A DNA stretch of 43,515 nucleotides, counting the filler, from Jimgerdemannia flammicorona (lineage: Eukaryota): NCBI GenBank assembly GCA_003990765.1. It is 2 parts of 2 records of this genome, joined end to end, with 100 filler letters (N's around TTAATTAATTAA, not from the genome) between each part and the next. Parts side by side here need not be neighbours in the genome. Positions count along the whole stretch, not along the records: positions 21,809 to 43,515 come from RBNJ01001407.1; 1 more part is not named here. The stretch is one strand, 5' to 3'. Shown one piece after another: positions 15,101 through 38,329 of this stretch. The notes beneath the pieces were generated by a model. It was not told where the DNA came from and searched no databases. It saw nothing but the letters and a program-made list of their open reading frames with translations. The first letter of the stretch is position 1. The number at the start of each line of letters is the position of its first letter. The position numbers and the translations under genes were made by a program.

Positions 15101-15830
15101 AGGCCCATCCTCACTTCCCCCAAACCTCTCCCCTCCTAGCAGCCCCCAGTGATCAGACCATGGACACCAAACTACCTCTAGCGCCATTCAGACATCTGCT
15201 CCCCAGCACTCCGCTGTCAAAACCCAGTCAATCCTGGAGCCCAGCCCTGCCGCCCAGTGAGTGTACATCTGCCGATTGTCCCAAAACTATCTTCCTGAGT
15301 CCACTAAAGAACTCAACCTCTCTGTCTCCAACCAGTCACCCAACCCACCACTCTCACTCTACATACCTCTTCCTCCATCTGTTCTGTCCATCTCCTTATC
15401 CCATACCATGTTGAAGTCACCCTCCAGGCAGTCCAACCCAACCTCACCCAAGACACCAGACTCTTTCAACCCGTGAATCCAATCCACCCTCTCTCTTCTC
15501 TCAGCTGGGCAGTAACAAGACCCAACTGTCAATGAGCCCTGTCCAGGCCTCTTCCACACTCTCCACACTACCCAAGAACCCCAATGTCCAATGTCCCCAA
15601 TGTCCCCCATCCCTTTCCAAATAAGAATACCCACCCTCCCCCTCCATACTACTGCCCCCCCCCCATTCCTTAGTCCAATCCTGTAAATCCACATCTACCT
15701 CATAACGAACATCCTGCAACAAAAAGAGGTCCGCATCTAGTCTCTTTAACCATCCAAATATATACTTCCTCCTAGCCACCCCCCATAACCCATTCACATT
15801 CAAAGAGAATATTCTAGTTATACTGTTCAT
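12170..15830 (-). pseudogene. LINE ORF2: APE endonuclease + reverse transcriptase + C-terminal H..EC motif
   Basis: MNSITRIFSLNVNGL, LFLLQD, CYCPAE, GDFN (APE). QHGFVGG, GVPQGDPLSP, AFADDM (RT). GGLGLVDF; PEHWLGEC. Interrupted by stops and frameshifts; 3' end approximate. Confidence 0.92.
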
Positions 15831-15861
15831 ATTGAAAGAATGTTGCAATTGGGACCCCAGC

Positions 15862-17777
15862 CTAGTATTCCATGCTCATCTCATCCCCAGCCAGATTTAA
15901 GTGCCATTCAGCTTTCAAGTCACCCTCTGCATTAGCCCAAGCATCCAGTGCCTCCAAGATTTCCTGACATTCTACCCTATCCACTACCTTCATCTCTGAC
16001 TGATAGTCCATGCAGACTGCACACCACTTCTCCAGTCCCTTCCTCGAGTTCCACAAGTATAATGCTCAGTCACTCGCAATCCCCCTAAGTTCCTCCTCCC
16101 TCTGATCATCGACTTGATATTCAACTGACTCCAGGAGGACAGTCAGGATCTCGTTCCTTACCTTCCTCGGCACCTCCTCCCCCTATAGGATTTCCTCCCA
16201 ATGTCTCTCTTCCATAACTCTGAAATCCTCTCCCCCCAGCTCCTCTGCCACTACCCCTTCCAGGGTCTTCCACATCCACTTCTCCTCATCCACTGCCTCT
16301 GCCACACCCTGGACGATTTGTCCCCCATCCATCTCAGGGTCCATCAGAGTGCTCCTCCTCACTAACTCATCTCACTCCTCATCCAGCACATCCAGCAGTT
16401 CCTCCTCCCCCTCAGCTCCACCCAGGACACTATACTGAGAGTATACACCTTTGCTCATTTCTGCATCTGCCTCTATACTGCCTTTCCTCTCCTTCTCCAA
16501 TCTAGTCTGAGCTCCACCATGGGCCCTTTCACCCCCCACAGCCCAGGTGCTCTCCTGCAATCCCACATCCCCCTCTCCTGTGCTTCTGCCGGCTCTACCC
16601 CCACCCAACTTCACTAGCAGCTCCTTCTGGATTTTCCTCCCCTGTATCTTCTCCCAGGCCCCCCTCTCCATCCAGACCCTCTTCCCATCCACCTCTCCCA
16701 CTACTGTCCTGGCCTCAAACTCCTTTCAGGCCAATCTCCTCCTTGCAACCACCCCTTCCAGATCCTCCAGAGCTTCCAACAGGTCTTCTTCCTCCTCCTG
16801 GGTCCCCTTTACCCTTGTGACCTTGCACTTCACCAGTCTCCACCTCAGCATCGCTGGCCAGTCCCTCATCTTCCCTGTATTCTCTTTTCCAGCCAGCCTC
16901 ATCCTGACATTGACATCACTAGTCCAGAGCTCCATACCCTCCCAGACCTTGAACTCAACATCCACAATCTCTCTATACTCCTTGATTGCCTCCACAACCA
17001 ACTCTCTAGTCCTCTCCTTCAACAACATTGGGAGATCCAACACTGTCAACTGCACTACTTGGGGGTCCAGCACATGCACCTGGCCATAGAGACCACAACT
17101 CCACCAACTGTCACCCCCTTCTCCAAGGCTGTCAGCAAGGAATCTTCTTCCTCAAACTCCACCTTGACTCCTTCCTTCCCCTTCAAAAACTTCACCGAAG
17201 CTGCTCCCTTTGCCTCCTGCACTATCAGCCCTAAAATCATCCTTACCATCACTGTCAAACCTCTGAAACTCATTGTGACCATGAATTCTGACCTCAACTT
17301 CTTGAGTAACAGGGCTGACATTATGCCCATCACCCCATCTACCAGGTCCCTGGGCCTCATGCCCACTCCTTGTCCTGAATTATCAACTGCCATCACATCT
17401 GGATTTTTTGCCAGATCTCCAGTCACAGCCCTATCAATAGTCACATCTCCAGCCCCTACTCCCACTCCTCCTCTACCACCTGAAACTCCCCTGGGCACAC
17501 CTCCCTGTCCCCTAGCAGCAGCTTTCGACACCTTCCTTAGGCCCAACCAACTATCCAGACCAGAGGCCATCTTTCCCATTCTGACCTTGTTAGCAAAGAT
17601 CGATCTCTCCTCTCCTCTCTGCCTCAGACCACCCCTCCCTCTACCACCAGGGCCTTGGCTAGCCATTGAGGCCCCTGGCATCCCCAAACCATCTCCCCTC
17701 CTCCCCACCTTCTGCCAGCCAAAGGCACTACCACCCCCCTGGCCAGTATACTCACCAGTTTGATTGTTGCCATCCAT
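15862..17777 (-). pseudogene. LINE ORF1 (frameshifted)
   Basis: ATG at 17777 just inside the 5' end. Chained ORF fragments 17055-17777, 16726-17079, 16372-16701 and 15862-16056 lie immediately upstream of ORF2. Confidence 0.7.
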
Positions 17778-18360
17778 GTTGATAGTCGTCAGATACCAAA
17801 AACATTGTAAAAAGTATTGTCTGAGTCTTGCGTCACCTGAATGGTATTAGTGAAAGGTCTGTCTGAAGTCTTCACCCCTGAGACCTTTATCTCTGAAATC
17901 ACTTCTAATATTCCTAAAGCTATTCTTAAAGCCCTAGCTACTATCTAAGCTATCATTATTACTTAAGTTACCCAAGCTATCACTAGTATTATATATCTCT
18001 GTCTTAATAATATATAGATCAGATTTATTTATTTACCAGAGCTGGATCATCAGATTAATACTATAAGAGTACATCTATATTTAAGATCCAGTAATGCTAA
18101 AACTAAATAATATAATTTCTCTAACTCTAAATATAAGCTAGAGATAAAGAAAAAACCCTACAACTAACCAATAAAGAAGTAAAATAGATTTATAGTAGAT
18201 GAGTAAAGAACTTATATATAAGACTATCTCAAAGAGACTGATATATAAACTAAGGTCTAAAAAGACCCCAATCTCACTCTCTAAGCCTACAGACCTTGAT
18301 TATATTATTATATCAGCTCTCAGTTCTAGTTAGATACTACCAAATAAGGAAGGTTTCACT

Positions 18361-18712: not shown

Positions 18713-20449
18713 GTCCTACTCTCTAAGTTTACAGGCATCAATCATATTACTATATTAGCTCTTAGTTTTAGTTAGATATAGCTAGAACATTAGTCACTAT
18801 ACTACCTTACTATCTACCAGCCAATCAAAAGACTCTACTAAGATAATATCTACTATAACCCCAATAACTACTCCTAGTCTAGCATCTGACTAGTTTACTA
18901 TTATTACTCTTTCTCTTATCTAAAATAGTCATCTTCTCTCATTTTAATCTTACCTAAAAAACAGCTACCTATATTAGAACTATACTTATCAGAAAGCTCA
19001 CTAAAGTTCAGAGAGCTCTACTATAGATACTAATAACCTGCAGATAACCTATACTGTCACTTATGTCTAAGGTTAGCTAACTTTCTACACAGTTTATAAT
19101 ATACTACAATAATATCTCATTAATGATAGTAAAAGAAAGAAAGTACTATATTAAATAGATATATTTCAGATACATATAGCTAGAAGTACTAGAAACTATA
19201 AAAAAGAGGAGAAAGCACTGATCTAATACTGATAAAGAGATAACTCATCACTATTGCATCTCTTCTACTAGTTTATAATAGGTATAGCAAATCAATCTAA
19301 GGTAAAGAGAATGAAAGTTGGAGAAAGAAGACTCAGAAGATTATCTACTAAAATCTTATAATTAGAATAATAGTAGAGAAAGAAGTATTATTAAGAAACT
19401 CTATACAAATTCAAAAATTAGTTACAACTAGTTATATAAACTCAAAATAGTTAATAAAAAACTAATTAATCACTCAGACCTCTCTATAGTAGAAGATATA
19501 GATCTAAAATTATATATATTAGCTTAGAAGAGATAATCACTATAATGATATACTAGATTCAAAACCTATAAGTATAACTAAAATACTAGAAGCTAAAGAG
19601 TATAGTTTCAATAACTCACCCTATAGTTATATCTGTCAGTTTTAAGCCACTTAAGTCAGATATCTTTAATAGTCACTATAAATAACTATCTACTAATATC
19701 TGAATCTTCTAATTAGACCAATACTTTGAGCTGACAAAAATAGAAGTAGATATATAAGTCTAATTTATCATTATACTTCTTTAAGAAAATATAGTTATCT
19801 GATAGTATAATTATATCATAACTACTTCTATCTATCAAGAAATAAGAATTGAGAATTGAGTAGTATTTAAGAAGACTCTTCATAAGTAGTTCAAGTCTAT
19901 AAATACTACCAAACTAGTTAGAGACAGACTAGTAAATATTAAGTAACTTAAATCTATATAGCTATAATGTATAATTTTTATTAATTTTTTTAAAGCTATC
20001 TGATATAGCAGAAGATAAGAAAATAGACCACTATATCTAAGGCTTAAAAGAAAATATATAAATTAAGGTTGAACTAAAAGAACTAAGAACTCTTGAAGAA
20101 GTCATGAATATTACTAATAGATTTAATATTATTACTTATAGTTACTACTTTAAATTAGAATACTATAAGAAGAACTACTTCAAGAACTATTATAAAAACT
20201 AACTCAGAACAGTTGAATCAGCCCTAATAGATTTGGACTCTATAAATAAAAAGAATGCCAAGCTATCTCAGAAAAGAAGAAATATCTAAAAAAGTTAGAA
20301 GTATATTTCTTCTATTACTAGATAGAATATATTATAACCAAATATTCTAAGAAGATAAGTAAATCAATCAGATCAATTACTATGTTGTCTAAAGATATAC
20401 TCATTAATTTTACTACCAGTCAATCAGAACTTAAGATCAAGAAGCTATA

Positions 20450-20830
20450 TCTAAAGACTCAGATCTTTCAATATTAATCAGAAGAAATCATTAGATTTAA
20501 TTTATATTTAGTTAAGTAAGTTATCATTCCTACTAAAGGAAGAGTTCTAATATCTACTAGAATTATAGTTTAATATCTAGAAGACTATTATATAAGAATT
20601 ATAGTCAGATCAGAACTCAGTATCAACTATTATTTAAATATTAGTATTGGTATTATTAATTTAGACTACTGCAGACAAGTTTAAGTTCTACTTGTTAATC
20701 AGAAAAATTAAGATTATATATTAAAGAAGGAGACTAAGTTATACAAATGATTTTAGAAGAAGTAAGTCAACCTAAAGTCATAGAAGTTAAGAACTATCTC
20801 TAATTAAGTAAGATAAAAAAGGTTTTAATA
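20450..20830 (+). pseudogene. dUTPase domain of Gypsy F (between gag and protease)
   Basis: FNLY..VIIPTKGRVLISTRI...RSELSI...GIINLDYCRQV*VLLVN...KGF are transition-decayed dUTPase motifs 1-5. Confidence 0.78.
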
Positions 20831-21388: not shown

Positions 21389-21708
21389 TGTAACGTAGCG
21401 GATGCTTACTCTTGAAAGTACGTTGGATTTCTGTATCTTGAAAACTTGACTGTTCTGACTCTCGCAGAGTCTTCTTGAAGTTGCAGGGGAGGGTGGGTGA
21501 GTTCGAAGTGTATCTGCCCGCAGGCTTACTAGTTCCTTTGCTATCTCTTTGCTTTGAACTATTTCGATCTGAGGTTTATTCACTCGAAGATACTGGGTTA
21601 TTTATACAAGTTTGCTAGCTATGAGAGGGTGGCTAAGTAATAAATGAGTCATTTGGACTTTGTCAAAACATTTAGACAATGTCTAAATGCTATGCTAAAT
21701 CGGGGTAT
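21389..21708 (-). repeat. Young LTR (3' portion) related to the Gypsy D LTR, cut by the assembly gap
   Basis: Reverse complement ends ...GCATCCGCTACGTTACA and aligns with 37938-38178 and 30174-30325. Retains CpGs. Confidence 0.88.
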
Positions 21709-21808
21709 NNNNNNNNNNNNNNNNNNNNNNNNNNNNNNNNNNNNNNNNNNNNTTAATTAATTAANNNNNNNNNNNNNNNNNNNNNNNNNNNNNNNNNNNN
21801 NNNNNNNN
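21709..21808. other. Artificial assembly spacer (N44-TTAATTAATTAA-N44)
   Basis: Exactly 100 nt with a central linker that has stops in all six frames. True gap size and adjacency are unknown. Confidence 0.97.
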
Positions 21809-24351
21809 CAACCCACAATTCATGAGCTCTTTTGACCTGTGAAATGGTTACTGGCAAATTGCCATGAAAGAAGAAGATATCTACAAGACAGCTTTCTGAA
21901 CTCGCTATGGACACTTTGAGTTCCTGGTTATGTCCTTTGGCTTAACTAATGCTCCAGCAACCTTCCAGACTCTGATGAATACCATTCTGCACCCATACCT
22001 GGACAAATTCATTGTTGTCTATATTGATGACATCCTAGTCTTCAGCAAAACCCTGGAAGAACATCTTGAACACCTTGAACTAGTACTACTGAAACTCCAA
22101 GAAAACTGACTCTTTGCAAAACTCAGCAAGTATGAATTTTTTCTGAAAGAAATTCAATTCCTTGGACACATTGTCACTCCGAATGGAATTAAAGTGGACC
22201 CCAGCAAAATCTCTGCAATCAAAGATTGGCCCACACCCAAGAAGCTGAAAGACCTCCAGTCATTTCTGGGATTAGCAAACTATTACAGGTGATTCATTGC
22301 CAACTTTGCTAAAATTGCTACTGCCCTCACCCAAATGACCAAGCACAACAAGAAACAAGAACAACCCTGGACCATGAAACAAGAGAAAGACTTCAACAAT
22401 CTTGTAACATGGGGACCTGAACAAGATACTGCCTTTCAAGCACTGAAAGATGCTCTGATAACCACACCAGTACTTCAAGCGGCAAACCCTGCCCTACCAT
22501 ATGAAGTCACCACTGATGCCTCTGACCTAGCCCTTGGAGCAGTGCTCATGCAAGAAGGACACCCTGTGGCCTATCACTCCCACAAGTTCAATGATGCCGA
22601 AATCAACTACGCAACTCACGAGAAGGAAATGCTAGCCATCGTAGACACTCTGATCAAATAGCGACCATACCTAGAAGGAGCACACTTCACTGTATTGACT
22701 GACCACAAGTCATTAGTCAACATCAAGACCCAGGCTACTCTTTCTCGAAAGCAAGCCAGATGGATGAAAGTCCTCACCAACTTTGACTATGAAATCCAGT
22801 ACCGCCCTGGCAAGGAAAATATTGTTGCCGATGCAATCTCCAGACCACCAATCGAAGAGGTTATCCAAACTCTGACGTTGGTTACCAACACTATCATGAA
22901 ACAAATCATTGCAGCATGTGTTGATGATAAAGAAGCTCAAGCACTCCGAGAAATCCTGAACAATGATGATACCGACAAGCATACCCAGTACAATCAATAC
23001 CAACTCAAGGACAATGCTTTCTACTACAAGGACAGATTGTATGTTCCAAACAACCGAGACCTCCGAAGGACTATCCTATTCAAATGTCATGATGCCCCTA
23101 TAGCTGGACATTTAGGATTTGATAAATGTTACGAAGTTATCTCCCGAAACTTCTATTGGCCCCACATGGCAGATCAGCTCAAGACCTACATCACTTCCTG
23201 TGATGCCTGCCAACGAAACAAGTCCTTAACCTGGCTTACTCCACCCTATTCTGGTACCATCCACAAATTGGGAAAAAATCTCTATGGACTTCATTGTACA
23301 ACTACCTAGAACCAAGAACAGGAAAGATGCAATTGTTGTCCTTGTGGACTATCTCAGCAAACAAGCTCACTTTGTGCCTACTACTACTACTGTAACAGCA
23401 CCAGACATAGCCACACTCTTGTTTGACAACATCTTCCGCTATCATGGTCTTCCCAAGATCATTGTTAGTGACCGAGATCCGAAATTCACCAGCCACTTTT
23501 GGAAGGCCCTCCATACGCACCTTGGAACAAAACTTGCACTATCCACAGCCTTTCACCCTGAAACTGATGGCCAAACTGAAAGAATGAACCGAACTCTGGA
23601 ACAAATGCTAAGGAACTATGTCTCCTACAGACAAGATGATTGGCATGAACACCTCACCACAGTAAAGTTTGCCTATAACAACAGCAAGCAAGCCTCTTTA
23701 GGAATGACCCCATTCTTCACTAATACCAGACAAAACCCAAACACCCCTTTAACACTTATCCGAACTACTGAAGAACCCTCCACAGTCGAAGCTGTTGAAG
23801 AATTCCTACTCCAAATGCGCAATCTAAGCCAGATCGCAATTGAGAATTTATCATGAGCTCAAGAACAACAGTCACAGTATGTTAACCAACACTGCTGAGA
23901 AGAAACTTTTGATATTGGAGAAAAAGTTCTACTGGACATCAGAGGATACCGAGTTGACAACCTTAAGCACAGACCATCCACAAAGCTGAACAGCAAGTTC
24001 ATTGGACCATTTGAAGTCATCACACAAGTCTCTCTAACCTCCTACAAACTAGCACTACCGGACGCCATTAAGATTCACCCAGTCTTTAATGTTCAATGTC
24101 TCAAGTGATACAATGATAATAATGACAAGCTATTTCCAAATCGGACCACCAAACCACCTGCACCTGTCATTATTAATGACCAAGAAGAGTATGAAGTTGA
24201 ACAAATCCTCAACAAACATGGCAACAAGAACCATCCCGAGTACCTTGTCAAATGGAAAGGTTACCCGATCCACGATGCAACCTGGGAACCCAAGACCAAT
24301 CTCCAGAATACTACTGACCTAGTTCAGGAATATGATTCCTTAAACAACTAG
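21809..24351 (+). pseudogene. pol of Gypsy C (partial)
   Basis: Near-intact reading frames broken by a few TGA/TAG stops and a frameshift near 23230. Confidence 0.92.
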
Positions 24352-24881
24352 AACCAAACACTCTGCACCTATCTGTACATACCATATATTATCCTCCCAA
24401 ACATTATAATTATTGTGAACCAAACCAAGAACTCAGCAAAACAAGACAAGAATACTGACCCTCTGAAAAAATAGCAAAACTGAAAGCAAGCCTATTCTCC
24501 CCATACCACTGGTGGGAAACGAGGCGTAGACATTTAAGAAGATTTCTTAGAGGAAATTCTCCAGCAGTAAATGACATCAGAATCACTTCCGGCGCATGGC
24601 ATTGAACACACGACCCTTTAACGTGTGAATCCAACACATTAGGCAACTGTACTACGAGCATGCCACTTTCTGAAAAAATGGACCTTATCAGACTTTTGAC
24701 CTCCTAAATGGTGTAACAACACTAGAACAAATTAGAAGGCCCCGACGAGGACATCAAAAGCTAAGAAGGGGAGAGTTGTAAGCGCACAACCTCCAAGCCA
24801 CCGAAATTACACGTCACCCTCTGAACAAGCCATTGAAATCACACGTGACCTCTGAACAAATCTGGAAATCACCTGCTTGAT

Positions 24882-24928
24882 CACAAAGCTGAGTCAAACC
24901 AAAGTCACAGCGCACAAAGCTGAGTCAA
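24882..24928 (+). promoter_or_regulatory. Duplicated CACAAAGCTGAGTCAA containing AP-1/Gcn4-type TGAGTCA sites in LTR U3
   Basis: TGAGTCA at 24890-24896 and 24921-24927; inverse TGACTCA at 26223-26229. Function inferred only. Confidence 0.45.
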
Positions 24929-25064
24929 TACGAAGTCACAGAACACAAGATCTACACAAACGGAATCTTACCAATCAGGACCAAATGCATATATACTGAG
25001 CACCAAGATGCGTCGAATCAGAGAACCAAAACAAACAACAACCACAACTTTCCAACACACAAAC

Positions 25065-26159
25065 ATGACCACTGAGATCTACAACTGTATCCGCGCTGAC
25101 ATTTGGAATGCCATTGTCAACTGAGCCACACCCCCTCTGCCCCTCATGAATATCCATAGCCTGGTACCCCTCTACTTCGTGGAAGCCCGATGGAATGCCC
25201 TGAACAAGCTTAGCGAGGCCCACTGAATTGGACAAATCTCAAGCTACTACCAGATCGGCCGCCTCCTGGAAGACATGGTCGAACACCACCATGATACAGA
25301 TATTACCCAGATGTCTCAACACCAGAAGCTCATCACCCGCAAACATCGAGAACTCTTCTATGAGTACAACACCTTTATTCCCTGCCTCCGAGTTACTACC
25401 AGCAAAATGATTGCTACCCTGTCCTATGGCCAAATCGATGACATGATACAAGAACTCAACCACAAGTACCTTGAGTATGTCGAAACCACAGACAGAACCT
25501 TCCTGCACCCTGATGACCATATCCTACAAATGCCTCAAGTTGGATATGTCATGAAGGACATCTATGATATAATCCACTTCGACGAAGATGAAGCAGAAGA
25601 CAATGATCCCTCTGACGCCGACATAACCTCTAGCCAAGGATCTCTGCCAACCCTGATCACTCTGCCAACCTTGCCGATGAACCTACAACAGTTCATAACC
25701 ACCTACGAAACTTATTGGGACAATGACCACTGGCATGAATACCAACCCGCGTTTACCCCTGACTACTTCAACTACAATGAAGAGACCGGAGAACACAACC
25801 TGTACCTTCAGACAACCCTTGAGATTGAACCAACCACTCTACCACCCGAGTACAAGCGACATGAACAGCCACCAGTATACTATAACCCTGCAACTCATAG
25901 TGCCATAACCTATAGAAGGTACGCAGATAGTGAATCTGATGAAAGCGAAAACAATACACCCATCCTTCATCCACCAACATCTTATCCAGCCTACGAGACA
26001 GACAATGCCATCCTGTGGGATGGAGATGAAGTCCCAATGTATTACTATCTCAGCCAACAAGGAGAAGTAATCTGTGAACCATTATTCCTAGACAACTACT
26101 TCATCAGAGATGATGCAATTGATGGTGATGTCATCGAGAACTACCCAGACAGTGCCTAA
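25065..26159 (+). pseudogene. LTR-embedded accessory ORF, ~364 aa ancestral (294 aa still open from 25275)
   Basis: ATG 25065 is in frame with 25275..26159. Only two in-frame TGA stops (25122, 25224), both compatible with CGA>TGA. N-terminal motif YYQIGRLL...TRKHRELF; acidic D/E/Y/P-rich C-terminal half. Confidence 0.8.
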
Positions 26160-26990
26160 ACCTATAAATAGTCTAGCAGTCATAGTATAGTTAGATTAGC
26201 CTTGTATGACATGACTGTGAACTGACTCAGCAGTCAGACGATCTCTTAACATGTCAGATTACACTTGTACTACATGACTGCATTCCGACTCAGCAAGGCA
26301 CTTAGTGCTACATCCATATCTAGCATAGTCCAGATAGCCCCTCACTAGTATAAATACCCCCTCCCCCAGATCTCAGAATCTCAGACTTGAACAATCCAAA
26401 CACAACTCCTGAGCACTTCCCCACAATATCCCTTCACACAACTACTCCTAGTATAGCAATATCATGAATAGCAAATAAACCTATTCCATAACCCACAAAC
26501 CACTCTTAAGTAAATCCACTCTCTGTTAGGTCCCACTCCTAACCCCATTACGAAATTTCCTAATTGGGTATTGTCTGCAGCGATACGCCAATTCAACTAA
26601 GCTGGTCTTAGTTTCTTGAACTTCCTGAAATATGGAAAATCCTGAACATCCAGAACTAGTCTGAAAAAGGACTTTGGTTGAGACATCAACCCGATCTTGA
26701 AATCAATAAGCATGGAGGACGTACTCCATATGAAATTGATCTTGACCATAAGAAAACAGTCTTCCAGAATATCCAGAACTTCCAGAAAACCCTTCCAGAA
26801 CTACATAACGATTACCCTAAAAAGTAACCCTCTTACAATTCTAGTGGTTTTCTAAAATCTAGTCCAGAAGTAGCCCCATCAGGTAAAAGAGTAATAGGTA
26901 TTAATAGGACAACCTTTAACTTCAGCCTTGAAGTAGTCAGGAATTCACTTAGATCAAAGTCAATAAGAATAAAATTGTCTTCTATTCTGG

Positions 26991-27183
26991 AAAACTGACA
27001 GGTGGGAAACCAGCAGGCAAGAAACTAGCAGATAAGAAACTGGTAGGCAAGAAACTGACAGACAAGAAACTAGTAGACAAGAAATCAGTAGGTGAGAAAC
27101 TGGTAGGCAAGAAACTGATAGATGAGAAACTAGCAGATGAGAAACTGGCAGGCAAGAAACTGGCAGACAAGAAACTGATAAGA
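26991..27183. repeat. 15-bp tandem array, ~13 copies (AAACTGGCAGGCAAG-like)
   Basis: Read directly; unit differences are almost all transitions. Confidence 0.92.
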
Positions 27184-27243
27184 CAGAAGTATAGTCAATT
27201 ATAAAAAAAAAAAAATAAAGAAACTGTTCAGAATGAGATACCA

Positions 27244-27555
27244 GAGACCAGCTGCAAGAGGTCCTCCTCAGGAGAGAGAGTACTTCATCAGTATAGATTG
27301 AGAGACACCCCCCTGACCAACCTCCTCTAGGGCTGATATCATCTGAGATAGAATGACAGAGACTGGTTGTGAGAGGTCTCTCTTAAGAGAGAGAGTACTT
27401 TGTTAATACAGATCAGGAGATACCCCCCTGAATGGTCTCTATTAAAGCTGATACTATCTGGAACAAGTTGCTGGATACTGGCCATAAGAGGTCTTTCTTG
27501 AGTAAAAGAGTATATCATTGGTACAGATCATAAGACACTCTGATGACCAGCCTCT
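27244..27555. repeat. 115-bp tandem repeat, ~2.7 copies
   Basis: Units start at 27244, 27359 and 27474 and share AGAGGTC...AGAGTA...AGAT blocks. Confidence 0.85.
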
Positions 27556-27865
27556 AAGATACCCCTGCTCCCACTCCTACAGATAAGCCACTGCTGCAGC
27601 CAAACCCCTACTATAGTGAGAAGTAAATATATAATATAGAATAAATGCAATATACCTGAAATGAGCATCAAGGTATATCTAGAAATGAAGAAAAGAGTAA
27701 TGAGACAATGTGTCCAGATGATATATCAATGTGGGTAATAAGATGGTATACTATAATTGGTAGTAAGAATGGGGTAACAAGAACAGAGTGACAAGAATGA
27801 GGTAGTGAGAATGGGGTGGTGAGAATGAGTTAGCAAGACAGTAAGCCAGAATACTGAAATAGATA

Positions 27866-28380
27866 ATGAGACAGAGTGAGACAGAGTGAGGAGATGAGAC
27901 AGAGTAATAAATAAAGCAGAGTGAGAGAATGAGGCAGAGTGAGAAGATGAGACAGAGAGAGGGGATGAGTGAGAGAATGAGACAGAGTGAGGGGATGAGG
28001 CAGAGTGAGAGGATAAGGCAGAGTGGGGGAATGAGGCAGAGTGAGGGAATGAGACAGAGTAAGAGAATAAGGCAGAGTAAGAGAATGAGGCAGAGTGAGG
28101 AGATAAGACAGAGTGAGGGGATGAGGCAGAGTAAGGAGATGAGATAGAGTGAGGGGATGAAGTAAAGTGAGAGGATGAGGTAGTGTAAGGAGATGAGACA
28201 GAGTGAGGAGATGAGATAGAGTGAGAGGATGAGGCAGAGTGAGAGAATGAGGCAGAGTGAGGGGATGAGGCAGAGTAAGGGGATAAGACAGAGTGAGGGG
28301 AGAGTGAGAGAATAAGGCAGAGTAAGGAGATGAGGCAGAGTAAGAGAAATAAGACAGAGTAATAGAAATGAGACAGATTG
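27866..28380. repeat. 18-bp purine-rich tandem array, ~28 copies (ATGAGGCAGAGTGAGGGG-like)
   Basis: Read directly; explains the low-complexity ORFs at 27726-28457. Confidence 0.95.
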
Positions 28381-28484
28381 AGATATAACAAAAATGAGTC
28401 TTCAAAAAAGTATACATCTACTCTACAAACTAGTATAAACTGACTGACATAAACCAATATAAACAGACCTAAGGTGTCCAGACA

Positions 28485-28610
28485 AGATTCAGAGCTTTTT
28501 TTGAGCTATTAGATTTAGAGCTTTTTTTGAGCCATAAGATTTGGAGCTTTTTTTAAGTCACAAAATTCAGAGCTTTTTTTGAAGCTATGAGATTTGGAGC
28601 TTTTTTAAAC
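28485..28610. repeat. ~26-bp tandem repeat, ~5 copies (AGATTTGGAGCTTTTTTTGAGC...)
   Basis: Read directly. Confidence 0.85.
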
Positions 28611-28759
28611 TGCTTCCAGTAGGGAGAAATAGACAGCAGATTTGTTGGAGCCTTTTTTTGAGTGGTAAGAAATGAGATGAGCTACTTAGAAAATATTTCT
28701 TTAAGTATCTGACAAGATTTCACATAGAGCAAGGATAGGGAATAAGAGAGAGAGTACAA

Positions 28760-30113
28760 ATAAAACACTTGGAGGTTGGAGAGGTTGCCATATCTCTCTG
28801 GTGGGTAGGATATTAATTCTGAATGTCTATTGGTTCCCTAAGCTATGGTATGTTGCTTATCATTTAGACTTTCTAGCTTGGGTGGTGAAGAGACTGATAA
28901 AACTGGCTAGAGATTGAATTTGAGCTGAGAGGTAGGCCCAGATTAGCTGGAATGTCCTTTCAATTCTAGTAGATTGAGAGGGGCTAGGACTGGTGGATTT
29001 TTCTAAGCAGCTGTACTATCTAAGAGCTTGGTGGTTGAAGTGCACTGCTGAACTGTGGGGAGGTGGATGGGTGCCTCTGATGCAGATGGTGTGGGAGATA
29101 AGATCCTTATCAAGAGGGGTCTCAGGAGATCTGTTGTCTCTGGTGGATCTAGGTAGGAGTTACTGAATAAGGTATAAAGAATTCTGGTAGGAGGTGGTAG
29201 ATGGAGCACACTGTATTGACTTATACTGATGAAACAATGAGGGAGAGATGCTGTGGAGACCTGCAATGTAGAGATGGGACAGGCTACTACTGAGAGGTAT
29301 ACTCCTTATCAAATTTGATATTGAAGATGAAGTAGAGTGTCAGAGGGGTCTTGGCCAGAACCTTTGGCCTAGTAGTTGGCAGGTGGTAAGAATTGTAGAG
29401 GGGTGGGACTGGGCAGGAGTCTGGTCATAGAGTGCTGAGGTGTAGAGATAGCTCCCTTCTAAGTTCTGAGTAGTATGGTGGAGGATGCTATGGCAAAATA
29501 TCACATTGAATTTCTGCTCTGGTCATCTAGTAGAGGGTGGTCTCTTAGAATGCAAGGAGTGCTATAATGTAGAATAAGTTGGAGGAATAGTGCAGATGTC
29601 AGAACATTGACTGAGAGAGTGCAAAGTGCTGGGGAACTTTTGGATAACTATAGGAGACCAGCTGAGTATCAAGAAGAGACTGAATGGAGAGAGAGATTAT
29701 TGGGAGAATTTGAAAACTAGGTTGGTGGGAGGTGTGGGCAATGAGTGGCTTATACTAGGGTGGGTGCTGGTAGTATGAGTGGGAATGGCTAGACATTGGC
29801 TCTTTGTTTTTGAGGAGAAATGATGGCTGAGATTGCAGAAGAGGTTGTTAAGATGAGAAGGGCTGATGGGAGATGTACTGACAGAGTGGTGGGTTGGGTG
29901 AGGTCCCCAGGGTGGGTATTGGCACTGTCTGGTAGAGGGGATCTGTATGCTGAGTAGGGGAAGGGTGGAGATGATTAATGGCCTAGTAGTCTTTAATTAA
30001 GAGAATTTAGGGAGATGGGGAGGAGCTCTTAGGGGAATTAGATAGGAGTGGATTCAGTGTATTATATATGATATAAATAAGGGTATTAATAAAGAGTACA
30101 GTCTAAGAGACTA

Positions 30114-30173
<60 letters not shown>
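28760..30173 (+). mobile_element. 5'-truncated L1/Tx1-like LINE (second family), ORF2 C-terminal part + poly(A)
   Basis: SLVGRILILNVYWFPKLWYVAYHLDF...GLGLVDF is homologous to LINE 12053-17861. AATAAA at 30088-30093, A57 at 30117-30173. No TSD recognised; start approximate. Confidence 0.85.
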
Positions 30174-30179
<6 letters not shown>

Positions 30180-30325
30180 GCAAAGGGACTAGTAAGTCTG
30201 CAGGTAGATATACTTCAAACTTATCTACCCCTGTATTCTGAAAACTCTGCAGAGTCAAAGAAGATTAAGTTTTTAAGATATAGAAATCTGACACACTTAT
30301 ATAGTTATATATTTACTATATTATA
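30174..30325 (+). repeat. 3' part of the 5' LTR of Gypsy D (truncated at the LINE poly(A))
   Basis: Aligns with 38027-38178; followed by the PBS. Confidence 0.88.
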
Positions 30326-30619
30326 ACTTGGTATCTATTGACTGGTAATTTAAAATGAATTCCTCACTTTCAAGCTGAATAATGAATAACTGTTATCACC
30401 TGAACAACCATACAAATCAAATCAAGACATCCAGACAAGATGGATATAAGACCATCAATATTCTATAAATATATCTCAGATGAATCAATTATCACCTTTA
30501 TTGATAACTTCAAGCAATATACTACTGTAAGGACTCTGATAGCATTATAGCAAGTAGCCCTCATGTTCTTCAGTCTTTGAGGATCAGTAAGAGCAGTATT
30601 CACAGCTGTAATCTATATA

Positions 30620-32212
30620 TAGTAAGGGACAAAACCTTACCAATGTTATATTATTTTTAAATCTTAATCTATTGTAATCTAAATATATATGAATATTATT
30701 AAATTCATATTTTAACTAATAATAAAGGTCTAGAATAAAACAGTATTTATTTTGCTAAATTTGTATAATTATTTCTAAAGTTATAATTCTTTTAAGTAAA
30801 CCACTCATTGGTAAGGTTTTGTCTCCCCCAATGGTTTTAATTCACTAACTCTAGCTCTATGCTTGCTCTGTACCTGAAACTTCACTCCTTTATTCTTTTT
30901 TGATATACTTTTTCCTTCCATATCTCTCACAATGAAAAAAATCTCAATTGACTGTCGCAATCACATTATTAATACTCTGAAGTCTAATATATCAATAAGT
31001 AAGATTGTGAAACAAATGGATGTCAGCACTATGACCATTTCTCATATATGAAAAGAGTTCTACAGTGGTGAGGTTATGCCACCAAAAGGAGATCACCCAT
31101 GTGTATTCTCAGCTCAAGATGAAGCATAGGTTGTTTGCCAGATTATCATGGACAAGGTGGAAACTGTAACTGAGGTCGCAAAAACACTCTAAGAAGCTGA
31201 CAAAACACTTCAAAATGGACTTCAAGATGATGGCAAACCTTCTGTAAGTGCAAAAATGGTATGGAGAACACTGAAGAGGGTCAGCCTGAAGTCAATTGTG
31301 AAGCAGAAGAGGCCCAGATTGCTCAAATGATATATTAAGACTAATTATGAGTTTGTCCTTAAATACAAGGACTGGACAATCAAGGACTGGAAATAGGTCA
31401 TCCTCTCTAATGAAATGAAGATCAACTATCTTAGCTCTGATGGTCAAAAATGGGCATGGAAAAAGCCAGAAATACTATATGACAAGTATCATATGACCAG
31501 AATGGTAAAATTCAGCAGTAGATCTGGGGATATATGATATATAAGAGGGACAGTTACACCTGTCAGATCAATGGTTGCATGGATACAGAGCTGTACTAGA
31601 GCATTCTTGACAATGAATTGCTGGAAACAATTAAATATTACCATATGGATCAGAAAAGATTGATTTTTCAGCAAGATAATAACTTGAAACATATGTCAAA
31701 AAAAACCTGCCAATAGTTCACTGATCACTCAATTTATTTGTTGAGTTGGCCAGCACAATTTCCCAATCTGAATCCAATTGAACATTTATGGTAGCAACTT
31801 AAAAAACAACTTAATGCATACAAGGAGCCCTCTAAGGGAATGTAGAATCTTTGGAAATATGTAGAGCAGGAATGGAATAGGATTCTAAAGAATGTTTGTA
31901 TTGGTTTAATTGAGAGTATACCAAGGAGGGTGGCTGCTATATATAAGGTAAAAGGGGGCTATACTAAATATTGAAATGATCAATAAACTGATTGGTGATA
32001 TGTCAGGAACAAAACCTTACCAATGGTCAGTTTTTCTAAAAGAGTTATAACTTTAGAAATAATTATTCATATTTAGCAAAATATATACTGTTTAAAAGCT
32101 CTAGACTTTCTTTATTATTGGTTAAAATATAGATTTAATAGCATTCATATTTAGACTACAATAGGTTAAGATTTAAAAAAATAAAACATTAGTAAGATTT
32201 TGTCTCTTACTG
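30620..32212 (+). mobile_element. Tc1/mariner DD34E transposon, 1593 bp, ~205-bp TIRs, TA TSD, nested in gag of Gypsy D
   Basis: TA|TAGTAAGGGACAAAACCTTACCAATG ... CATTAGTAAGATTTTGTCTCTTACTG|TA; TIRs at 30620-30823 and ~32008-32212. Confidence 0.95.
30932..31974 (+). pseudogene. Tc1 transposase
   Basis: DWK*VILSNEMKIN, FQQDNNLKH, WPAQFPNLNPIEHLW, C-terminal KGGYTKY*. 34 residues between the second D and E. Confidence 0.93.
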
Positions 32213-34089
32213 TAAGAAATGATGACAATACTATACTAGTAGCACAGAAGGCTTGGTTATAAATTACTTACTATACAGATAAGATTAAGTAAGTCCTGAA
32301 GGATCAGCTCAATATAATATGTTAAGGAATGAGCAAGGATCTCAACATATTCTACACCAGAATCTGATATTAGATAATTCTTACAAATTATTCTACCACT
32401 ATTCAAGATCAAGTAGCTAAGACAACCTTTATGAAAGGAGTCTACTCAGAAATAGTTCTAGCCATCTACTCATCACTAGTAGTTCTGAACTTGCTATAGA
32501 AAATCATCTATATTCAGTGATATTGGATAGCCAGACACCTACAAGACTATATAATGGAAAGAGTTACTAGAGTCAGAATTGAAGCACCTAAGGCAATTAG
32601 TATGATCTCTACCACAGTGATCAATCAAAACACACCTCAGCCAAGAGCTACTGAGTAGTAGAGAAACAGTAACTCAATGGAGAAACTTGCCAAGAAGTTT
32701 GCTGAAATAACAGCTCATCTGAGAGATATGGTAAAAGAAATTAAAGGAAGAGACTATTGCTCAGTTCAGAAGTTTGCTATTACCTCAGACAAGAAGATAG
32801 ATATCTGCTATACTTGTGGAGAAGAGGACCACTACTCATATAAATATATGAGTGAGACTAAGTATAAAGCTTAGCCAAACAATGTTATAAGAAATAAGAA
32901 ACAGGTCAACACTATCACCTTTAAGGAGATTAGAGAATCAGATGAAGAAGAATGAGAGATATACTCCATACAGACTACTAAGAAAGATATCCAAAAAGAA
33001 CCCTATAAGAGACTGCCAGAGAGACTTAAGAAGAACTCTATGAAAAAGCAGATAGAAACTACTACAGAAAGTCAAGGTGAAGAAATAGATCAAGATATAG
33101 AACTAGAATAGGCTGTTTAAGATATCATTCAAGAAACTACCTCAGTCAGTGAAGGAGAAAAGAAGAAGAAGCTTCACAAGACTAAGACTTTCAAGTATGA
33201 CATCTTCAAGGACCTCAGTCAATAAAAGATCAATGCAACCTTTGGTCAGCTGACAGAAATATCTATATTCAGATAGCAAATGAGATACAAACTTACTGAG
33301 ATAACTAAGAAGCAAGGTTGGAAGATAACTGAGGCCAACAATGTTTAAGAAAACTTTGGAGAAAAGAGTGAAGATAATTGCCTATACAATCTATCAAATC
33401 AAAGATAGAATCTTTAAGATCATCATTGATACTGGAGTAGGAGGATGCCTCCTTAGTAAGAAAGCAGTAGACTGCCTAAGTTGGGAGGTTGAAGAAGCAA
33501 CCAAACTGGTATTTATTACAGTAGATAACATAAGAGCCATATCTCTAGGAAAGATCTGAGATGTCCCTATTAAGTTCAGAAGAGCAACTATCTTAGTAAA
33601 TATGATCATAACCAATGCTACCAACTATAACATCCTCATCAGCAACCAGTGACTATAAAGCCAGAGCAATAATTGACCTCAATGCTCAGAAGATACAGAT
33701 TATCTACTAAGATCAGAAGATGTGAATTCCCATCAATATGTATCAATAAAGAAGTACTGCCTGAGATGGAGAAAGAAAAAAGTAAGCAAGAAGAAGTCTA
33801 CATAGTGACTATTCAGAAAAAGAAAAAGAAAGTCAGATGGATCAGTGAAGAAGAATGGTATAAAAGGATCATTGAAGAATATGTACTACAAGGAGTCTGC
33901 TCTCATAGAATCAAGATATACTATATGAAATATATTGATAATTACTATCAATATATCAGTGGAATCAAGAAAATCTATTATAAAAGAAGACAGAAGGCTC
34001 TCAAGAAATAAGCAAGATAAGAAAAAGAGAAGGAAGAGAATGATAAACCACCAGCTCTTCTAAAGAACAGTAATGATAAAGAAGAAATC

Positions 34090-34503
34090 AAGGTCAAGAT
34101 TTGAAAAATCCACTCTGATATAGTTCTACCAGGATATAAGTCAGAAAATGCAGCCAGAATAAATATTGCTATAGTAGAGAAAACTGTACTAAAGCCCCAA
34201 ACAACCACTCTACTTGCAATTAGTCTGAAAATGACCATTCCAAAAGACTATATTGGAATCCTCAAGACAAGAAGCAGCCTAGTTAAGAGTGAGATTACTA
34301 TTGAAGAAGGAGTCATTAATTCAGACTATATTGGGGAAATACTACTTATTGCTAGAAACCATAACTCTATAATTCTATTTTCAATCAAAAAGAAGAACTA
34401 ATTGGTACAGATATTAATCTTCTCAGTTCTTTAGCCAAATATCATAAAAGTCAAGAAGTTGGAGGAAACAGAAAGAGAAAAGAAAGGATTCAGATCTATA
34501 GGA
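34090..34503 (+). pseudogene. dUTPase domain of Gypsy D (between protease and RT)
   Basis: LPGYKSENAARINI...RSSLVK...GVINSDYIGEI...LVQILI...TEREKKGFRSIG match motifs 1-5. Confidence 0.92.
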
Positions 34504-37226
34504 AGAGGAGTATTCACTAGCACCAAGATTACCAAATTAGATTATAAGAAGAAGGAAACCACAAATAAGTATAGCTATACTATTGGAGATAAATTCCCAC
34601 TCAAGAAGAAACTCAAGAAGATACTGTATGAATTTGAGGATGTTATAGCCATAGACTTCAAGAATATCAAGAAAAAGACTCCATACTACTATTATGATAT
34701 AGATATAGGAGATACCAAACCAATTTACCAAAAAGTAAGATCAATTCCACTAGCCTATTATGAATGACTCAGAGAAGAAATCAAGCAGATGGAAGAAGTT
34801 AGTATTATCAAAGAAGTCAGTAGCCCTTGAGCTTCACCAGTTGTATTGGCTCTGAAAAAAGAAAGCAAATCAGAAGAATTTGCCCCAAGACTCTGCACTG
34901 ATTATAAAAGTTTAATCTGGCTATAAAGAAGGATCACCAACTACTGCCCCTTATCAGTAATATCCTTATAACTCTGGGAGATAAAGCACAGTACTATAGT
35001 ACCTTAAATTTATACTCAGAATTCTATCAGATTGATCTCACCAAAGCAACTAGTGAAAAATCAGCCTTCATTACTCTAGATAGAACCTATGTCTACCTAC
35101 AAATACTATTTGAAATATACAATACACCAGCAAGCTTTCAGCAAATGATGAATAAAATCTTCTACTATGACATGAAAAGATAGATAATGGTTTATATAGA
35201 TGATATTATCATCTATAGTAAGATAGCTGAAGAACATCTGCAGTACATCTAGCAGATGATAGAGAAGCTAAGGAAGTATGACCTATATATCAAGTCTAAG
35301 AAGTATAAGTTTGCAGAAATTGAGATCTCCTATCTTGGATACATCATCAACTAAGATAGAATATACACAGACCTACTCAAGATTCAAGCAGTAGTAGTAT
35401 ACCCAAGACCCACTACTATCACTGAAGTCTAAGCCTTTATGAGACTTACCTTATACTACTATAGATTTATTAGAGAATTCTCTAATATTATAGGCCCAAT
35501 CTATAAATTCAATAAGAAGGATGTCAAGTTTCAATAGACTGATAGGCAAAAAAAAGCATTTGATGAACTCAAGATCAGGTTAGTCTAAGTACTCATCCTT
35601 AGAAGATCTGATTGGATCTAAGAATTTATCCTGTAGATAGATGCAAGTACACAAAGACTAAGAGCTGTCCTGACCCAAAAGAAAGACAAAGTAGAATATA
35701 TCATCACATATCTCAGCTAAGGGATCTGAGAAGCTGAAAAAAAATATAAATCTTATAAGTTGGAATGTCTTGCAGTTATCTAGACTATAGAAAAGTTCTA
35801 CTACTACCTTGTCAGAAGACACTTCACTATTCAGATGGACTATTCAGCCCTTACCTGGCTACTAACCACCAGATAATCCAAAGAAATCTATACCAGATAG
35901 ATTATGAAGTTACAAGCTTATGATATAACCATTGTGCACTACTCTGAAAGAACTAATACCAATGTAGATGCTCTCTTATAGATACTTTAAAGGATTTTCA
36001 ACTAACAAATCAACTATAAATAAAGAACTCTACTACAGAATATCACCTATTTGAGACAGTGAAAGATACCTCAATATCTAGAAGAATAAATACAAATAAT
36101 TATCAATAGAACATGGAAACAATTTGAGACTAATAGAGAAATATTGAAAAAAGAAAAGCTATTAGTCATATCCAAATATAAGAAGAAGCAAGCAATGAAA
36201 TCAGTATATAAACTCAGCTATCTAGAAGAAACAAACATCTATGAAAAAGCAAAAAGAATAATGTGGTGACCAGGAATGAAGGAAGATATCAGACAATTTG
36301 TCAAGACCTATAATAAATATTGGAAACAGAAACAAAACCAATGAAATCAGGCCCCAGGATCAGTATAGATAGAATCAGTACCCTTCATATATATTTCAAT
36401 ATATATAATCAGCCCCCTACTGTTGACTTTGAATAGCAACTAATATATCATTATCATCATAGACCTTTTTATAAAATAGATAGAGGTAGGACCTCTCAAA
36501 GAAGTCAATATATAGTTAATTACTGATTTCTTTTACAAAGAAATCATCTGCTGATTCAAGACTCTAGCACAAGTAACTATAGATAGTGAAACAAAATTCA
36601 TGAATCAGTTCTTTGAGTTTCTCTATAAGAAGTATAAGATCTAGCACATTCAGACTATAGCCTATCACCCTCAAAGAAATAGACAAGTAGAAAGAACCAA
36701 CAAGATCCTCAAGAACATCATCACCAAGATCTATAATATGTAACTATGAAAACTAAGATCACTATCTGCCAATAGTATTATCTGCTCTTCAGGATATCTG
36801 ATCACAAAGTACCTATTTCACCCTTCAAGAGATACTGTTTGGAGAAGAAAGTTCTCAAGAAATTTTATCATCTAATGAAAATACTATATAGAAATATGTG
36901 GATATAGAAATATAGAGACTATACTAAATCAGGAAGAAAGCTGAGGATTATATAATCAAGATATAGGCACTATAGCAGAATAATGTAGAAAAAATGCACA
37001 AGTCTCTAAAAGATTATCAAGATAGAAGACAAAGTCCTAGTATATCAGAACATGATAGAAGCTTCATGGTCATGAAAACTAGAGCCTAAGTAGGAAGAAC
37101 CTTACCTTATGCAAAATATAAAAAGAACTACCTTTTGGCTATAAAAACTCTCAGGCACAATTATCTCTACTATCATTCACTGAAACAGACTCAAGAAGTA
37201 TCATAGCTAATCAACAGAGTACTGCT

Positions 37227-37770
37227 ATAGCCCTCAAGATCACCAGTACTACACAATGAGCCATAGAAAGACAATGGTATACTACTGAGCTACTGATCAT
37301 GAAAGAATTCTTTGATAGTATTCAGAGTATAATCCAGATACACTTATCACAAATCTTGTACTTCAAGGCCTACCAGAACTAGACTGAGTTTTAAGAATAT
37401 TTCAAGTTAGAACAACTACTAAACTCACAGTCAGAGATAAGAAAAGAAGACTAGATTAGAGAGTACCAGCTCTCTTACACTCAGATTACTATTACCAAAA
37501 GAGTGTACAAGTTATTTAAAGAAGATAAATAAGCTCTAGCTCATTTCTGAGAAGTAGCTCTAGAAAACTTTGGATATATCAAGAAATACTATTGGAAGAA
37601 CATAATGACATAAATCATACAGTACAAAGAGATACAAATTATAGAAGCTTGGAAGTTTGAGTGAATAAGATACTCTAGAGATAAATTATCTATTCAGGAG
37701 TAAGTTATGATGATTGATCTAAATTAGAAATATGAATTAAGAGAATAGACATTCGATCATAGTATCTAAA
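37227..37770 (+). pseudogene. Gypsy accessory ORF (copy in D), ~180 codons, between integrase and 3' LTR
   Basis: One frame reads ...EYFKLEQLLNSQSEIRKED*IREYQLSYTQITITKRVYKLFKEDK*ALAHF*EVALENFGYIKKYYW.... Start is ATA (inferred mutated ATG) at 37227. Confidence 0.68.
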
Positions 37771-37783
37771 TCTGATTTCTAAA

Positions 37784-38178
37784 TATAATATAGTCTTACA
37801 AATAGCAGCCATATTTCACAAGTTTTAACAAATGTTAAAGTATTTACAAATATTGAAAACTTTACAGATGTTAAAGTTTTGGCAATTGTTAAAGATTTAG
37901 CAGATGTTGAAAAGTAACTTACAGGAAATATAGTTATAACTTAGCCACCTTATAGCTAGTAAACTTGTATAAATATCTTCAGTATTTAGAATAAATAAAC
38001 CTTAGATCAAAATAGTTCAAAGCAAAGAGAAAGTAAAGGAACTAGTAAGCTTATGGACAGATATACTTTGAACTCACTCACTCCTATATTCTGAAGACTC
38101 TGTGGAATCAAAAAAGATTAAGTTTTCAAGATATAGAAATCTAACATACTTACACAGTTACATATCTGCTATATTATA
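37784..38178 (+). repeat. 3' LTR of Gypsy D (~395 bp)
   Basis: TATAATATAG...CTATATTATA is the transition-mutated form of TGTAACGTAG...CTACGTTACA. The 3' end is fixed by two other copies; the 5' end is inferred. Confidence 0.75.
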
Positions 38179-38329
38179 TTGTACAAATCTATACAAATCA
38201 TACATCTATATAATCTATATAATTATAAGTTTTATATGGTTGTACTTTTATATAATTATATAAATTATATAACTATAAGATTAAATAACTATTAAATTAT
38301 AATATTATACTATATTGGGAATCAGACTC

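Follow-up and report, generated by a model that had tools for sequence, protein, structure and literature searches.

The sag gene of mouse mammary tumour virus (MMTV) is an open reading frame (ORF) inside the U3 part of the viral long terminal repeat (LTR), and nef of the human and simian immunodeficiency viruses (HIV/SIV) and bel/bet of the foamy viruses likewise overlap U3. Here we describe an ORF in such a position in a Gypsy-type retrotransposon of Jimgerdemannia flammicorona (assembly GCA_003990765.1). The window, that is, the whole stretch of 43,515 nucleotides that was analysed, contains the Gypsy elements A, C, D and E, and in element C an ORF at 25065–26159 (the C ORF) lies wholly within the 2,061-bp LTR of the element (24777–26837), not between pol and the LTR.

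Among LTR retrotransposons, two papers describe extra ORFs of other kinds. Diverse LTR retrotransposons of bdelloid rotifers have ORF3 genes in common (Rodriguez, Kenefick and Arkhipova 2017, PMC5408684), and Retrosat2, RIRE3 and RIRE8 of grasses, which are Gypsy elements with long LTRs, carry a fast-evolving extra ORF, ORF0 (Gao et al. 2012, PMC3485330). A separate ORF downstream of pol is also present in elements D and E of our window, and is referred to below as the D-type ORF3.

The C ORF lies within the LTR of element C

The location of the C ORF is read from the following features of element C:

21810–24351, + strand: pol remnant, with reverse transcriptase, RNase H, integrase zinc finger, integrase core, SH3/GPY-F region and chromodomain; TAG stop at 24349–24351
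24763–24775, + strand: polypurine tract AAGAAGGGGAGAG, 13 nt, one base before the LTR start
24777–26837, + strand: 3′ LTR, 2,061 bp, with TGTAAG...CTTACA ends that form a 6-bp terminal inverted repeat
25065–26159, + strand: C-type ORF of 364 codons and a stop codon; TGA occurs in frame at 25122–25124 and 25224–25226
26163–26479, + strand: putative LTR promoter and polyadenylation signals, with TATAAATA at 26163 and 26349 and AATAAA at 26474–26479

All elements were located by Pfam searches of read-through frames and by tblastn with polyproteins. From its domain content, element C appears to be a Ty3/Gypsy chromovirus LTR retrotransposon, since a pol domain set (Pfam E values of 1.6e-26 for RVT_1, 1.8e-31 for RT_RNaseH, 1.3e-19 for Integrase_H2C2, 2e-06 for rve and 6.4e-15 for SH3_Tf2-1) is followed by a C-terminal chromodomain (Chromo, E 2.8e-15). 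The closest polyproteins are 50–56% identical to element C, and the nearest named relatives of its pol, at 40–48% identity, come from green algae and fungi.

The TG...CA ends and the polypurine tract before them are what would be expected of an LTR. The tract AAGAAGGGGAGAG is the longer of only two purine runs of at least 11 bases in 21810–26900, and TGTAAG (24777) and CTTACA (26832–26837) occur once each in the same interval. We have also checked the depth of contigs from four public runs (X1, X2, X13 and X15; X1 is a soil metagenome and X2 a coded organism, A) over 22000–27600. In X1, the summed contig depth is about 420 over pol (22000–24804), about 1040 over 24805–26113 and about 2200 over 26114–26861, and falls to 0–1.3 beyond, which means an increase over pol of about 2.5-fold from 24805 and of about 5-fold from 26114. 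The same three segments have depths of about 35, 68 and 144 in X2 (about 1.9-fold and 4.2-fold relative to pol). Contigs turn into unlike sequence before 24777 (X13) and after 26835/26837 (X2, X13 and X15). One X2 contig joins 26467 to 24786 through the bridge TGTAAGTAT, and another runs from 26837 into pol position 22666, the order expected of a 5′ LTR. Taken together, the polypurine tract, the unique ends, the depth step and the loose contig ends place the LTR at 24777–26837, with the C ORF inside it.

Since the depth over 26114–26861 is about twice that over the ORF in both X1 and X2, and since a TATA box directly follows the ORF stop (26163), it may be argued that a short LTR starts only after 26159 and that the C ORF, standing between it and pol, is an ordinary ORF3, with the depth over the ORF contributed by pol-less, non-autonomous derivatives. 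However, neither a purine run of at least 11 bases nor a TGTAAG is found near 26100–26200; the sole polypurine tract and TGTAAG stand at 24763–24777 and match the terminal CTTACA, and the loose ends and joints fall at 24777, not at about 26160. We consider such a short LTR very improbable.

Within the 2,061-bp LTR, the TATA box at 26349, the AATAAA at 26474 and the start of one X13 contig at 26401, where it abuts adapter sequence, are all downstream of the ORF stop, and the C ORF, which is on the sense strand, thus falls in U3; the border between U3 and the R region itself is inferred to be near 26400. The depths of X13 and X15, two runs that are RNA only by guess, peak at 26301–26861. The first-pass annotation of this DNA, made from the sequence alone, had described the ORF as carried 3′ of pol and before the LTR, and its location has to be revised to the U3 part of the LTR.

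Several points weigh against this placement or against a functional reading of it. The depth varies along the LTR (about 2.5-fold over the ORF, about 5-fold in the final 720 bp), which could reflect a shorter LTR with many pol-less derivatives, although the chance of this is small. The outside data do not come from reads of this genome but from short contigs that were assembled from metagenomes and coded organisms. The 5′ LTR, the primer-binding site and the target-site duplication of element C are not visible, because the element is cut, and its 5′ part missing, at the scaffold gap 21709–21808 (two runs of N, 21709–21752 and 21765–21808). Finally, none of the runs is on record as RNA, and the coverage of the ORF in X13 and X15 is not taken as a sign of its expression.

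Coding capacity of the C ORF

From the ATG at 25065, the frame is open over 364 codons save for the two TGA codons, and the other two sense frames contain 14 and 34 stops over the same codons. A phmmer search with the C ORF against 1.84 billion (1.84e9) representative proteins gave three matches, one of them spurious. The two accepted ones, both from short metagenome contigs, are P0002 (128 residues, 89% identity), which spans residues 1–128 of the C ORF, and P0001 (247 residues, 66% identity), which spans residues 115–363; no further relatives were found among these proteins. P0002 has Arg at both TGA positions, so the two stops of the C ORF are CGA>TGA changes. A homologue search at near lengths returned P0001 only, and two scans of metagenome contigs revealed no DNA locus encoding a relative of the C ORF. 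The third match, P0003 (E 7.9e-5), was rejected: it is a repeat protein of 68 residues, its score adds up over the repeats, and it "matches" 24 Pfam families that are unrelated, none of them with a single stretch that passes.

The C ORF and P0001 are identical at 162 of 246 positions, all gaps between them are in frame, and they have the C-terminus in common. Their substitutions have a mean BLOSUM62 score of +0.32, with 54% positive. Neutral simulations to equal divergence (n = 300) gave a mean of −0.45 ± 0.17 with 31% positive, and 1.3% of the simulated sequences were stop-free, so that the observed substitutions are conservative with a z of about 4.5. It has to be said against a coding reading that P0001 and P0002 entered the protein database only by being open, and their stop-free state is therefore biased by discovery; the conservative substitution pattern is free of that bias.

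A chance open frame in the A/C-rich, non-coding DNA of the LTR would be easier to come by than elsewhere, since T and G are scarce on this strand (A 0.32, C 0.29, G 0.17, T 0.22), which makes stop codons less frequent, and the C ORF has no known domain, confident fold or proven transcript. The other two sense frames, with their 14 and 34 stops, speak against such an accident, as does a copy that is 34% diverged in protein sequence and still keeps the frame, the end point and conservative substitutions; we regard a chance frame as extremely improbable. The Arg residues of P0002, the frame-specific openness and the conservative substitutions in P0001 all point to a genuine protein-coding gene that is, or recently was, kept by selection.

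The predicted product is acidic (pI 4.4), with 61 Asp and Glu against 18 Lys and Arg residues, and contains 29 Tyr and 26 Pro. Its N-terminal ~140 residues are predicted to be helical and the remainder is rich in Asp, Glu, Tyr and Pro. The AlphaFold2 model is too poor for use (predicted local distance difference test score, pLDDT, of 31.7), with helices to about residue 141 and mostly coil thereafter, and the ESM Atlas gave no usable neighbour. A loose likeness to DUF1016-N/DUF3102 had been suggested earlier; Pfam, with E ≤ 10 as the limit, offers no match for the C ORF, for its relatives P0001 and P0002 or for the translations of D, E and A′ described below, and no DUF1016/DUF3102 match for the intact relatives of the latter (P0138–P0140). 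The earlier remark that there is no transmembrane segment agrees with the hydropathy profiles, since the maximum Kyte–Doolittle value over 19 residues is 0.98 for the C ORF and 0.19 for P0138, with no transmembrane or other hydrophobic segment in either by hydropathy (no signal-peptide predictor was applied). By hydropathy, then, the C ORF does not appear to be an env-like ORF3 of the Gypsy/errantivirus type.

The D-type ORF3, its kinship with the C ORF and the surrounding window

Elements A, D and E and the D-type ORF3 copies are arranged as follows:

3005–3396 and 4137–4531: inverted repeat pair around A′, ~400 bp, 79% identity
3597–3921, − strand: A′, a remnant of D-type ORF3, in collinear pieces in adjacent frames (3921–3847 and 3854–3597)
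5341–11107, + strand: element A, gag through chromodomain
about 30171–38185, + strand: element D, with dUTPase, reverse transcriptase and RNase H, and a nested Tc1/mariner copy
37022–37210, + strand: C-terminal SH3/GPY-F region of the D integrase (...KLEPKxEEPY...RLKKYHS), with the pol stop TAA at 37208–37210
37203–37664, + strand: D-type ORF3 of element D, 153 codons, its end as in P0138; hidden Markov model (HMM) E 4e-53
37908–38185, + strand: 3′ LTR of element D, ends approximate
38420–38879, − strand: E copy of D-type ORF3, frameshifted, with the start/pol-stop overlap ATAGCTAA at 38879–38872
40794–38297, − strand: part of element E that matches D (35275–37801) at 73% identity; the two elements lie tail to tail

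A profile of the three degraded translations (D, E and A′), searched against 5.8 billion proteins, found intact metagenomic relatives, namely P0138 (153 residues), P0139 (127 residues) and P0140 (116 residues), with E values of 1e-38 to 4e-30. These proteins start with MANNRSTAIALKITS... (MANNRST...), which aligns to D from 37203. Element D has ATA where the relatives have Met, and the stops of D and E correspond to Arg, Gln or Trp in the relatives; the D copy contains ~9 in-frame stops through C>T and G>A decay. The degraded start of the D copy overlaps the pol stop, as ATAGCTAA, from ATGGCTAA. The integrase SH3/GPY-F region is in another frame than ORF3, and the same pol stop is present in E. 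Since the relatives have Met at 37203 and the pol TAA is at 37208–37210, the ancestral junction would have been ATGGCTAA, with the ORF3 ATG 5 nt before the pol stop. From the end of ORF3 to the D LTR (roughly 280 bp) there are about 240 nt. Elements D and E carry a real 153-codon ORF3 downstream of pol, for which we found no Pfam or PDB relative.

In a six-frame search of the window with an HMM built from the three intact proteins only, with no window sequence in it, the E copy was recovered in two frame pieces (E 1.5e-17 and 9e-12), and A′ came next after D and E, with E values of 0.009 (profile positions 36–121) and 0.04 (profile positions 10–34). A′ and D are also each other's best Smith–Waterman match outside D, E and their own locus (score 90; 582 six-frame chunks). 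The match of A′ is weak, its tblastn E value being 0.9 and a profile of D and E alone having missed it, yet on these comparisons A′ is best read as a decayed member of the D-type ORF3 family. No pol stands beside A′ on the minus strand, where the three frames of 2901–7700 contain no Pfam match, and transition-tolerant alignment showed neither a 3′ LTR of element A nor any nucleotide similarity that would link A′ with A or D.

For the D, E and A′ translations, Pfam gave nothing at E ≤ 10, and for P0138–P0140 only sub-threshold matches were obtained (HTH_Tnp_Mu_2, E 0.11, for P0139; NCH2, E 2.5, for P0140). Searched against PDB sequences, the D-type profile had no match with an E value under 0.49. 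The AlphaFold2 model of P0138 is all-helical and of low confidence (pLDDT 47.9), and the ESM Atlas returned for it only mixed small helical clusters. The tail of D was also considered as a degenerate chromodomain. It has no Pfam match at E ≤ 10 in either frame and matched none of a set of 137 proteins that includes about 120 chromovirus polyproteins, and this reading was dropped when the intact ORF3 relatives fixed the reading frame.

The first-pass annotation had joined the C ORF with the D, E and A′ ORFs in one accessory family carried 3′ of pol by three different Gypsy families, on the strength of a near-gapless alignment by eye around a common motif. Its four peptide strings are found exactly at 25245 (+), 3764 (−), 37398 (+) and 38682 (−), and the motif indeed lies ~60 residues from the start, at residue 61 in the C ORF and 66 in the D-type ORF. 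Element E is a nucleotide homologue of D as stated (73% over 2545 nt, 35275–37801 versus 40794–38297; 509 transitions and 121 transversions over 2483 aligned positions), and the chromodomain is present in C and none was detected in D. What becomes of the family itself depends on the member. We have compared the four window translations pairwise by the Smith–Waterman method, each against 300 shuffles. The D–E (z 24.7) and D–A′ (z 9.5) scores were reached by none of the 300 shuffles, and that part of the alignment stands as kinship. For the C ORF it does not, its scores being reached by 11 of 300 shuffles with D (z 2.3), by 6 of 300 with A′ (z 2.7) and by 254 of 300 with E (z −0.8).

Other comparisons of the C ORF with the D-type ORF3 gave similar results. 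Its best foreign Smith–Waterman scores are 50, ordinary background among the 582 six-frame chunks; tblastn of the C ORF against the window did not find D, E or A′ at E < 10, and neither did a C-family HMM. The D-type HMM gave an E value of 1.2–1.5 at the C locus. With hhalign, E was 0.9 against the degraded copies and 0.081 and 0.029–0.057 after the intact relatives were added, and the hhalign probability in all comparisons of C with the D-type was 0.04–1.7%. A lack of significant profile–profile similarity had been named in advance by the first-pass annotation as a refutation of a single family, and these values (E 0.9 and 0.03–0.08) are not significant. On sequence comparison, the case for the C ORF as a member of the D-type ORF3 family is therefore at most borderline, no conventional threshold having been reached.

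There are nevertheless observations that weigh against a complete separation of the two. P0002 and P0138 align with a Smith–Waterman score of 59 (z 5.3), reached by 1 of 2000 shuffles; the hhalign score of 18.1 was reached by 2 of 150 column shuffles (null 11.5 ± 2.2), and hhalign P values with the intact relatives are 0.029–0.08. The best alignment of the D-type profile in C is exactly on the motif noted earlier (nt 25236–25382), only one other locus in the window, D, E and A′ apart, scores better than the C ORF, and the aligned segment starts at nearly corresponding residues (61 in C, 66 in the D-type). Both proteins are predicted to be all-helical over about 150 residues, with similar helix boundaries, in low-confidence models. 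It might be that the first ~120 residues of the C ORF are remotely homologous to the D-type ORF3, both being forms of one helical accessory module, to which the C lineage would have added a long acidic tail before the module joined U3 by an upstream move of the polypurine tract. Against this stand the lack of any conventional threshold (HMMER E 1.2–1.5; hhalign probability ≤1.7%), the comparisons of P0002 with P0139 (82 of 2000 shuffles, p 0.044) and with P0140 (436 of 2000, p 0.18), and the z of −0.8 for C against E. The similarity was, moreover, picked by eye from the same window and is hence no independent test, and the structure models (pLDDT 31.7 and 47.9) are too poor for comparison. The similarity does stand out from ordinary noise, and remote homology of the N-terminal helical part is a tentative idea that we hold to be rather unlikely.

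The explanation that we favour, and hold to be probable by a modest degree, is that there are two different accessory ORFs, a U3-borne C gene and a separate D-type ORF3, whose kinship is not demonstrated. The earlier picture of an unannotated accessory family 3′ of pol survives for D and E, through P0138–P0140, with A′ as a degraded member, and loses the C ORF. Of four Gypsy copies with an extra 3′ ORF, one has its ORF inside the LTR and another, A′, has no adjoining pol, and the three Gypsy families shrink to D/E and one remnant.

The window around these elements is a mosaic in which AT-rich, strongly decayed repeats (GC 0.24–0.33) alternate with blocks of GC 0.40–0.54. CpG is nearly lost, with observed/expected ratios of 0.41 in element C, 0.12 in 12100–18000, 0.00 in 27000–30000 and 0.01 in element D, and this depletion, 0.00–0.41 across the whole window, is extreme. 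Together with the CGA>TGA stops of the C ORF, it points to a CpG-targeted C>T decay, not to classical repeat-induced point mutation of the CpA type.

Around D and E, D–E similarity ends at 37907, and in 37934–38202 a single short LTR lies between the two tail-to-tail elements; the internal sequence of E ends at 38202, directly after the D 3′ LTR, which leaves E without its own LTR there. Other copies of the D LTR are a 5′ copy at about 30171–30325 and a fragment at 21413–21643 (− strand). Element E is split, its upstream part resuming at 42355–43430 after an interruption (40957–42355) by a GC-rich insert (GC 0.48 at 41001–42000). The Tc1/mariner-type element inside D spans 30618–32214, with inverted ends at 30618–30822 and 32009–32214 (83%), a Pfam DDE_3 match at 31522–31818 and a weak match to HTH_Tnp_Tc3_2.

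Upstream of element C, a decayed Gypsy 5′ part (19939–20745, + strand) with capsid-like and dUTPase matches is followed by the reversed D-LTR fragment at 21413–21643. The N gaps follow immediately, and the passage from here into element C is thus a scaffold join and not biology. Large inverted-repeat arms (12386–13435 versus 29826–28777, 64%; 12053–12124 versus 30160–30087, 93%) flank the segment at 18–27 kb, which contains element C (arms at 12053–13435 and 28777–30160). These arms lie in GC-rich, nearly CpG-free DNA with a strong strand skew, the left arm having a GC skew of about −0.5 and the right arm one of about +0.5. Short direct repeats (26992–27188) lie just beyond the LTR of element C, and an 18-bp tandem repeat array with at least 18 registers is found at 27895–28362. 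Runs of about 60–70 A (or T) occur at 30117–30176, the position of the D 5′ LTR, and at 43440–43515, the end of the window; the two match each other at 92–98%.

Possible mechanism and comparison with known systems

A gene inside the LTR would be copied to both ends of the element in each cycle of reverse transcription and would persist in solo LTRs. The genomic RNA would carry the C ORF only in its 3′ U3, and the ORF could therefore be expressed only from its own promoter within the LTR or through a subgenomic RNA. At 24988, 77 nt upstream of the C ORF ATG, lies a TATA-like CATATATAC that may serve as such an internal promoter. As for the product, our best guess, made with low confidence, is an element-encoded adaptor or modulator of transcription acting through the acidic, Tyr/Pro-rich tail; the first-pass annotation had named a transactivator or an anti-silencing factor as candidate functions. 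For the D-type ORF3, the layout, with the ATG 5 nt before the pol stop, suggests translation by termination–reinitiation at ATGGCTAA or from a short subgenomic RNA.

If the two ORFs were related after all, a shift of the polypurine tract to a place upstream of ORF3 would explain how the gene entered U3. A helical ORF3 module would then be common to divergent Gypsy lineages of a soil eukaryote and would have been absorbed into the LTR in one chromovirus lineage. We think this scenario doubtful. Were it true, the LTR would be a self-contained unit of promoter and gene, duplicated at each transposition, and expression could continue from thousands of solo LTRs.

If the C ORF is expressed, every solo LTR is potentially a copy of the gene, which would change the annotation of LTR "junk" in this organism, and the element would offer a tractable case of accessory-gene acquisition by retroelements. 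The D-type ORF3 is a second orphan family, and its start/pol-stop overlap may be an instance of coupled translation in a retroelement of eukaryotes. Current domain libraries detect neither family, and repeat annotation would mask both.

Literature phrase searches for ORFs in retrotransposon LTRs gave no retrotransposon case and an LTR-borne ORF for MMTV only, which does not prove that none has been published. In layout, MMTV sag is the closest system, being a sense-strand accessory ORF in U3, and hence present twice, once in each LTR, whose expression requires a transcript that is subgenomic or starts at an internal promoter. The carrier of the C ORF, in contrast, is a chromodomain Ty3/Gypsy element without env, and its product is acidic and of no detectable family. 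MMTV Sag is a type II membrane glycoprotein, whereas the C ORF has no hydrophobic segment; this comparison is one of properties, no direct sequence comparison with Sag having been made.

The bdelloid rotifer elements resemble D, E and A′ in that extra ORFs stand 3′ of pol in dUTPase-carrying elements, and the occurrence of one ORF type across element lineages, which was the hypothesis of the first-pass annotation, fits the D/E/A′ ORF3. The rotifer ORF3s have known domains (env-like, GDSL esterase or DEDDy exonuclease; PMC5408684), whereas both ORFs described here are orphans, and sharing across clearly different families is not shown for them. The likeness of the C ORF to ORF0 of Retrosat2 consists in an unusually long LTR and a lineage-restricted orphan ORF that evolves faster than pol; ORF0, however, is internal, upstream of gag-pol, and not in the LTR (PMC3485330), and our protein searches with the C ORF gave no match to it. 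Extra ORFs are known from LTR retrotransposons; what is unusual about element C is that a conserved protein gene stands in its entirety inside the LTR of a Gypsy element that is not retroviral.

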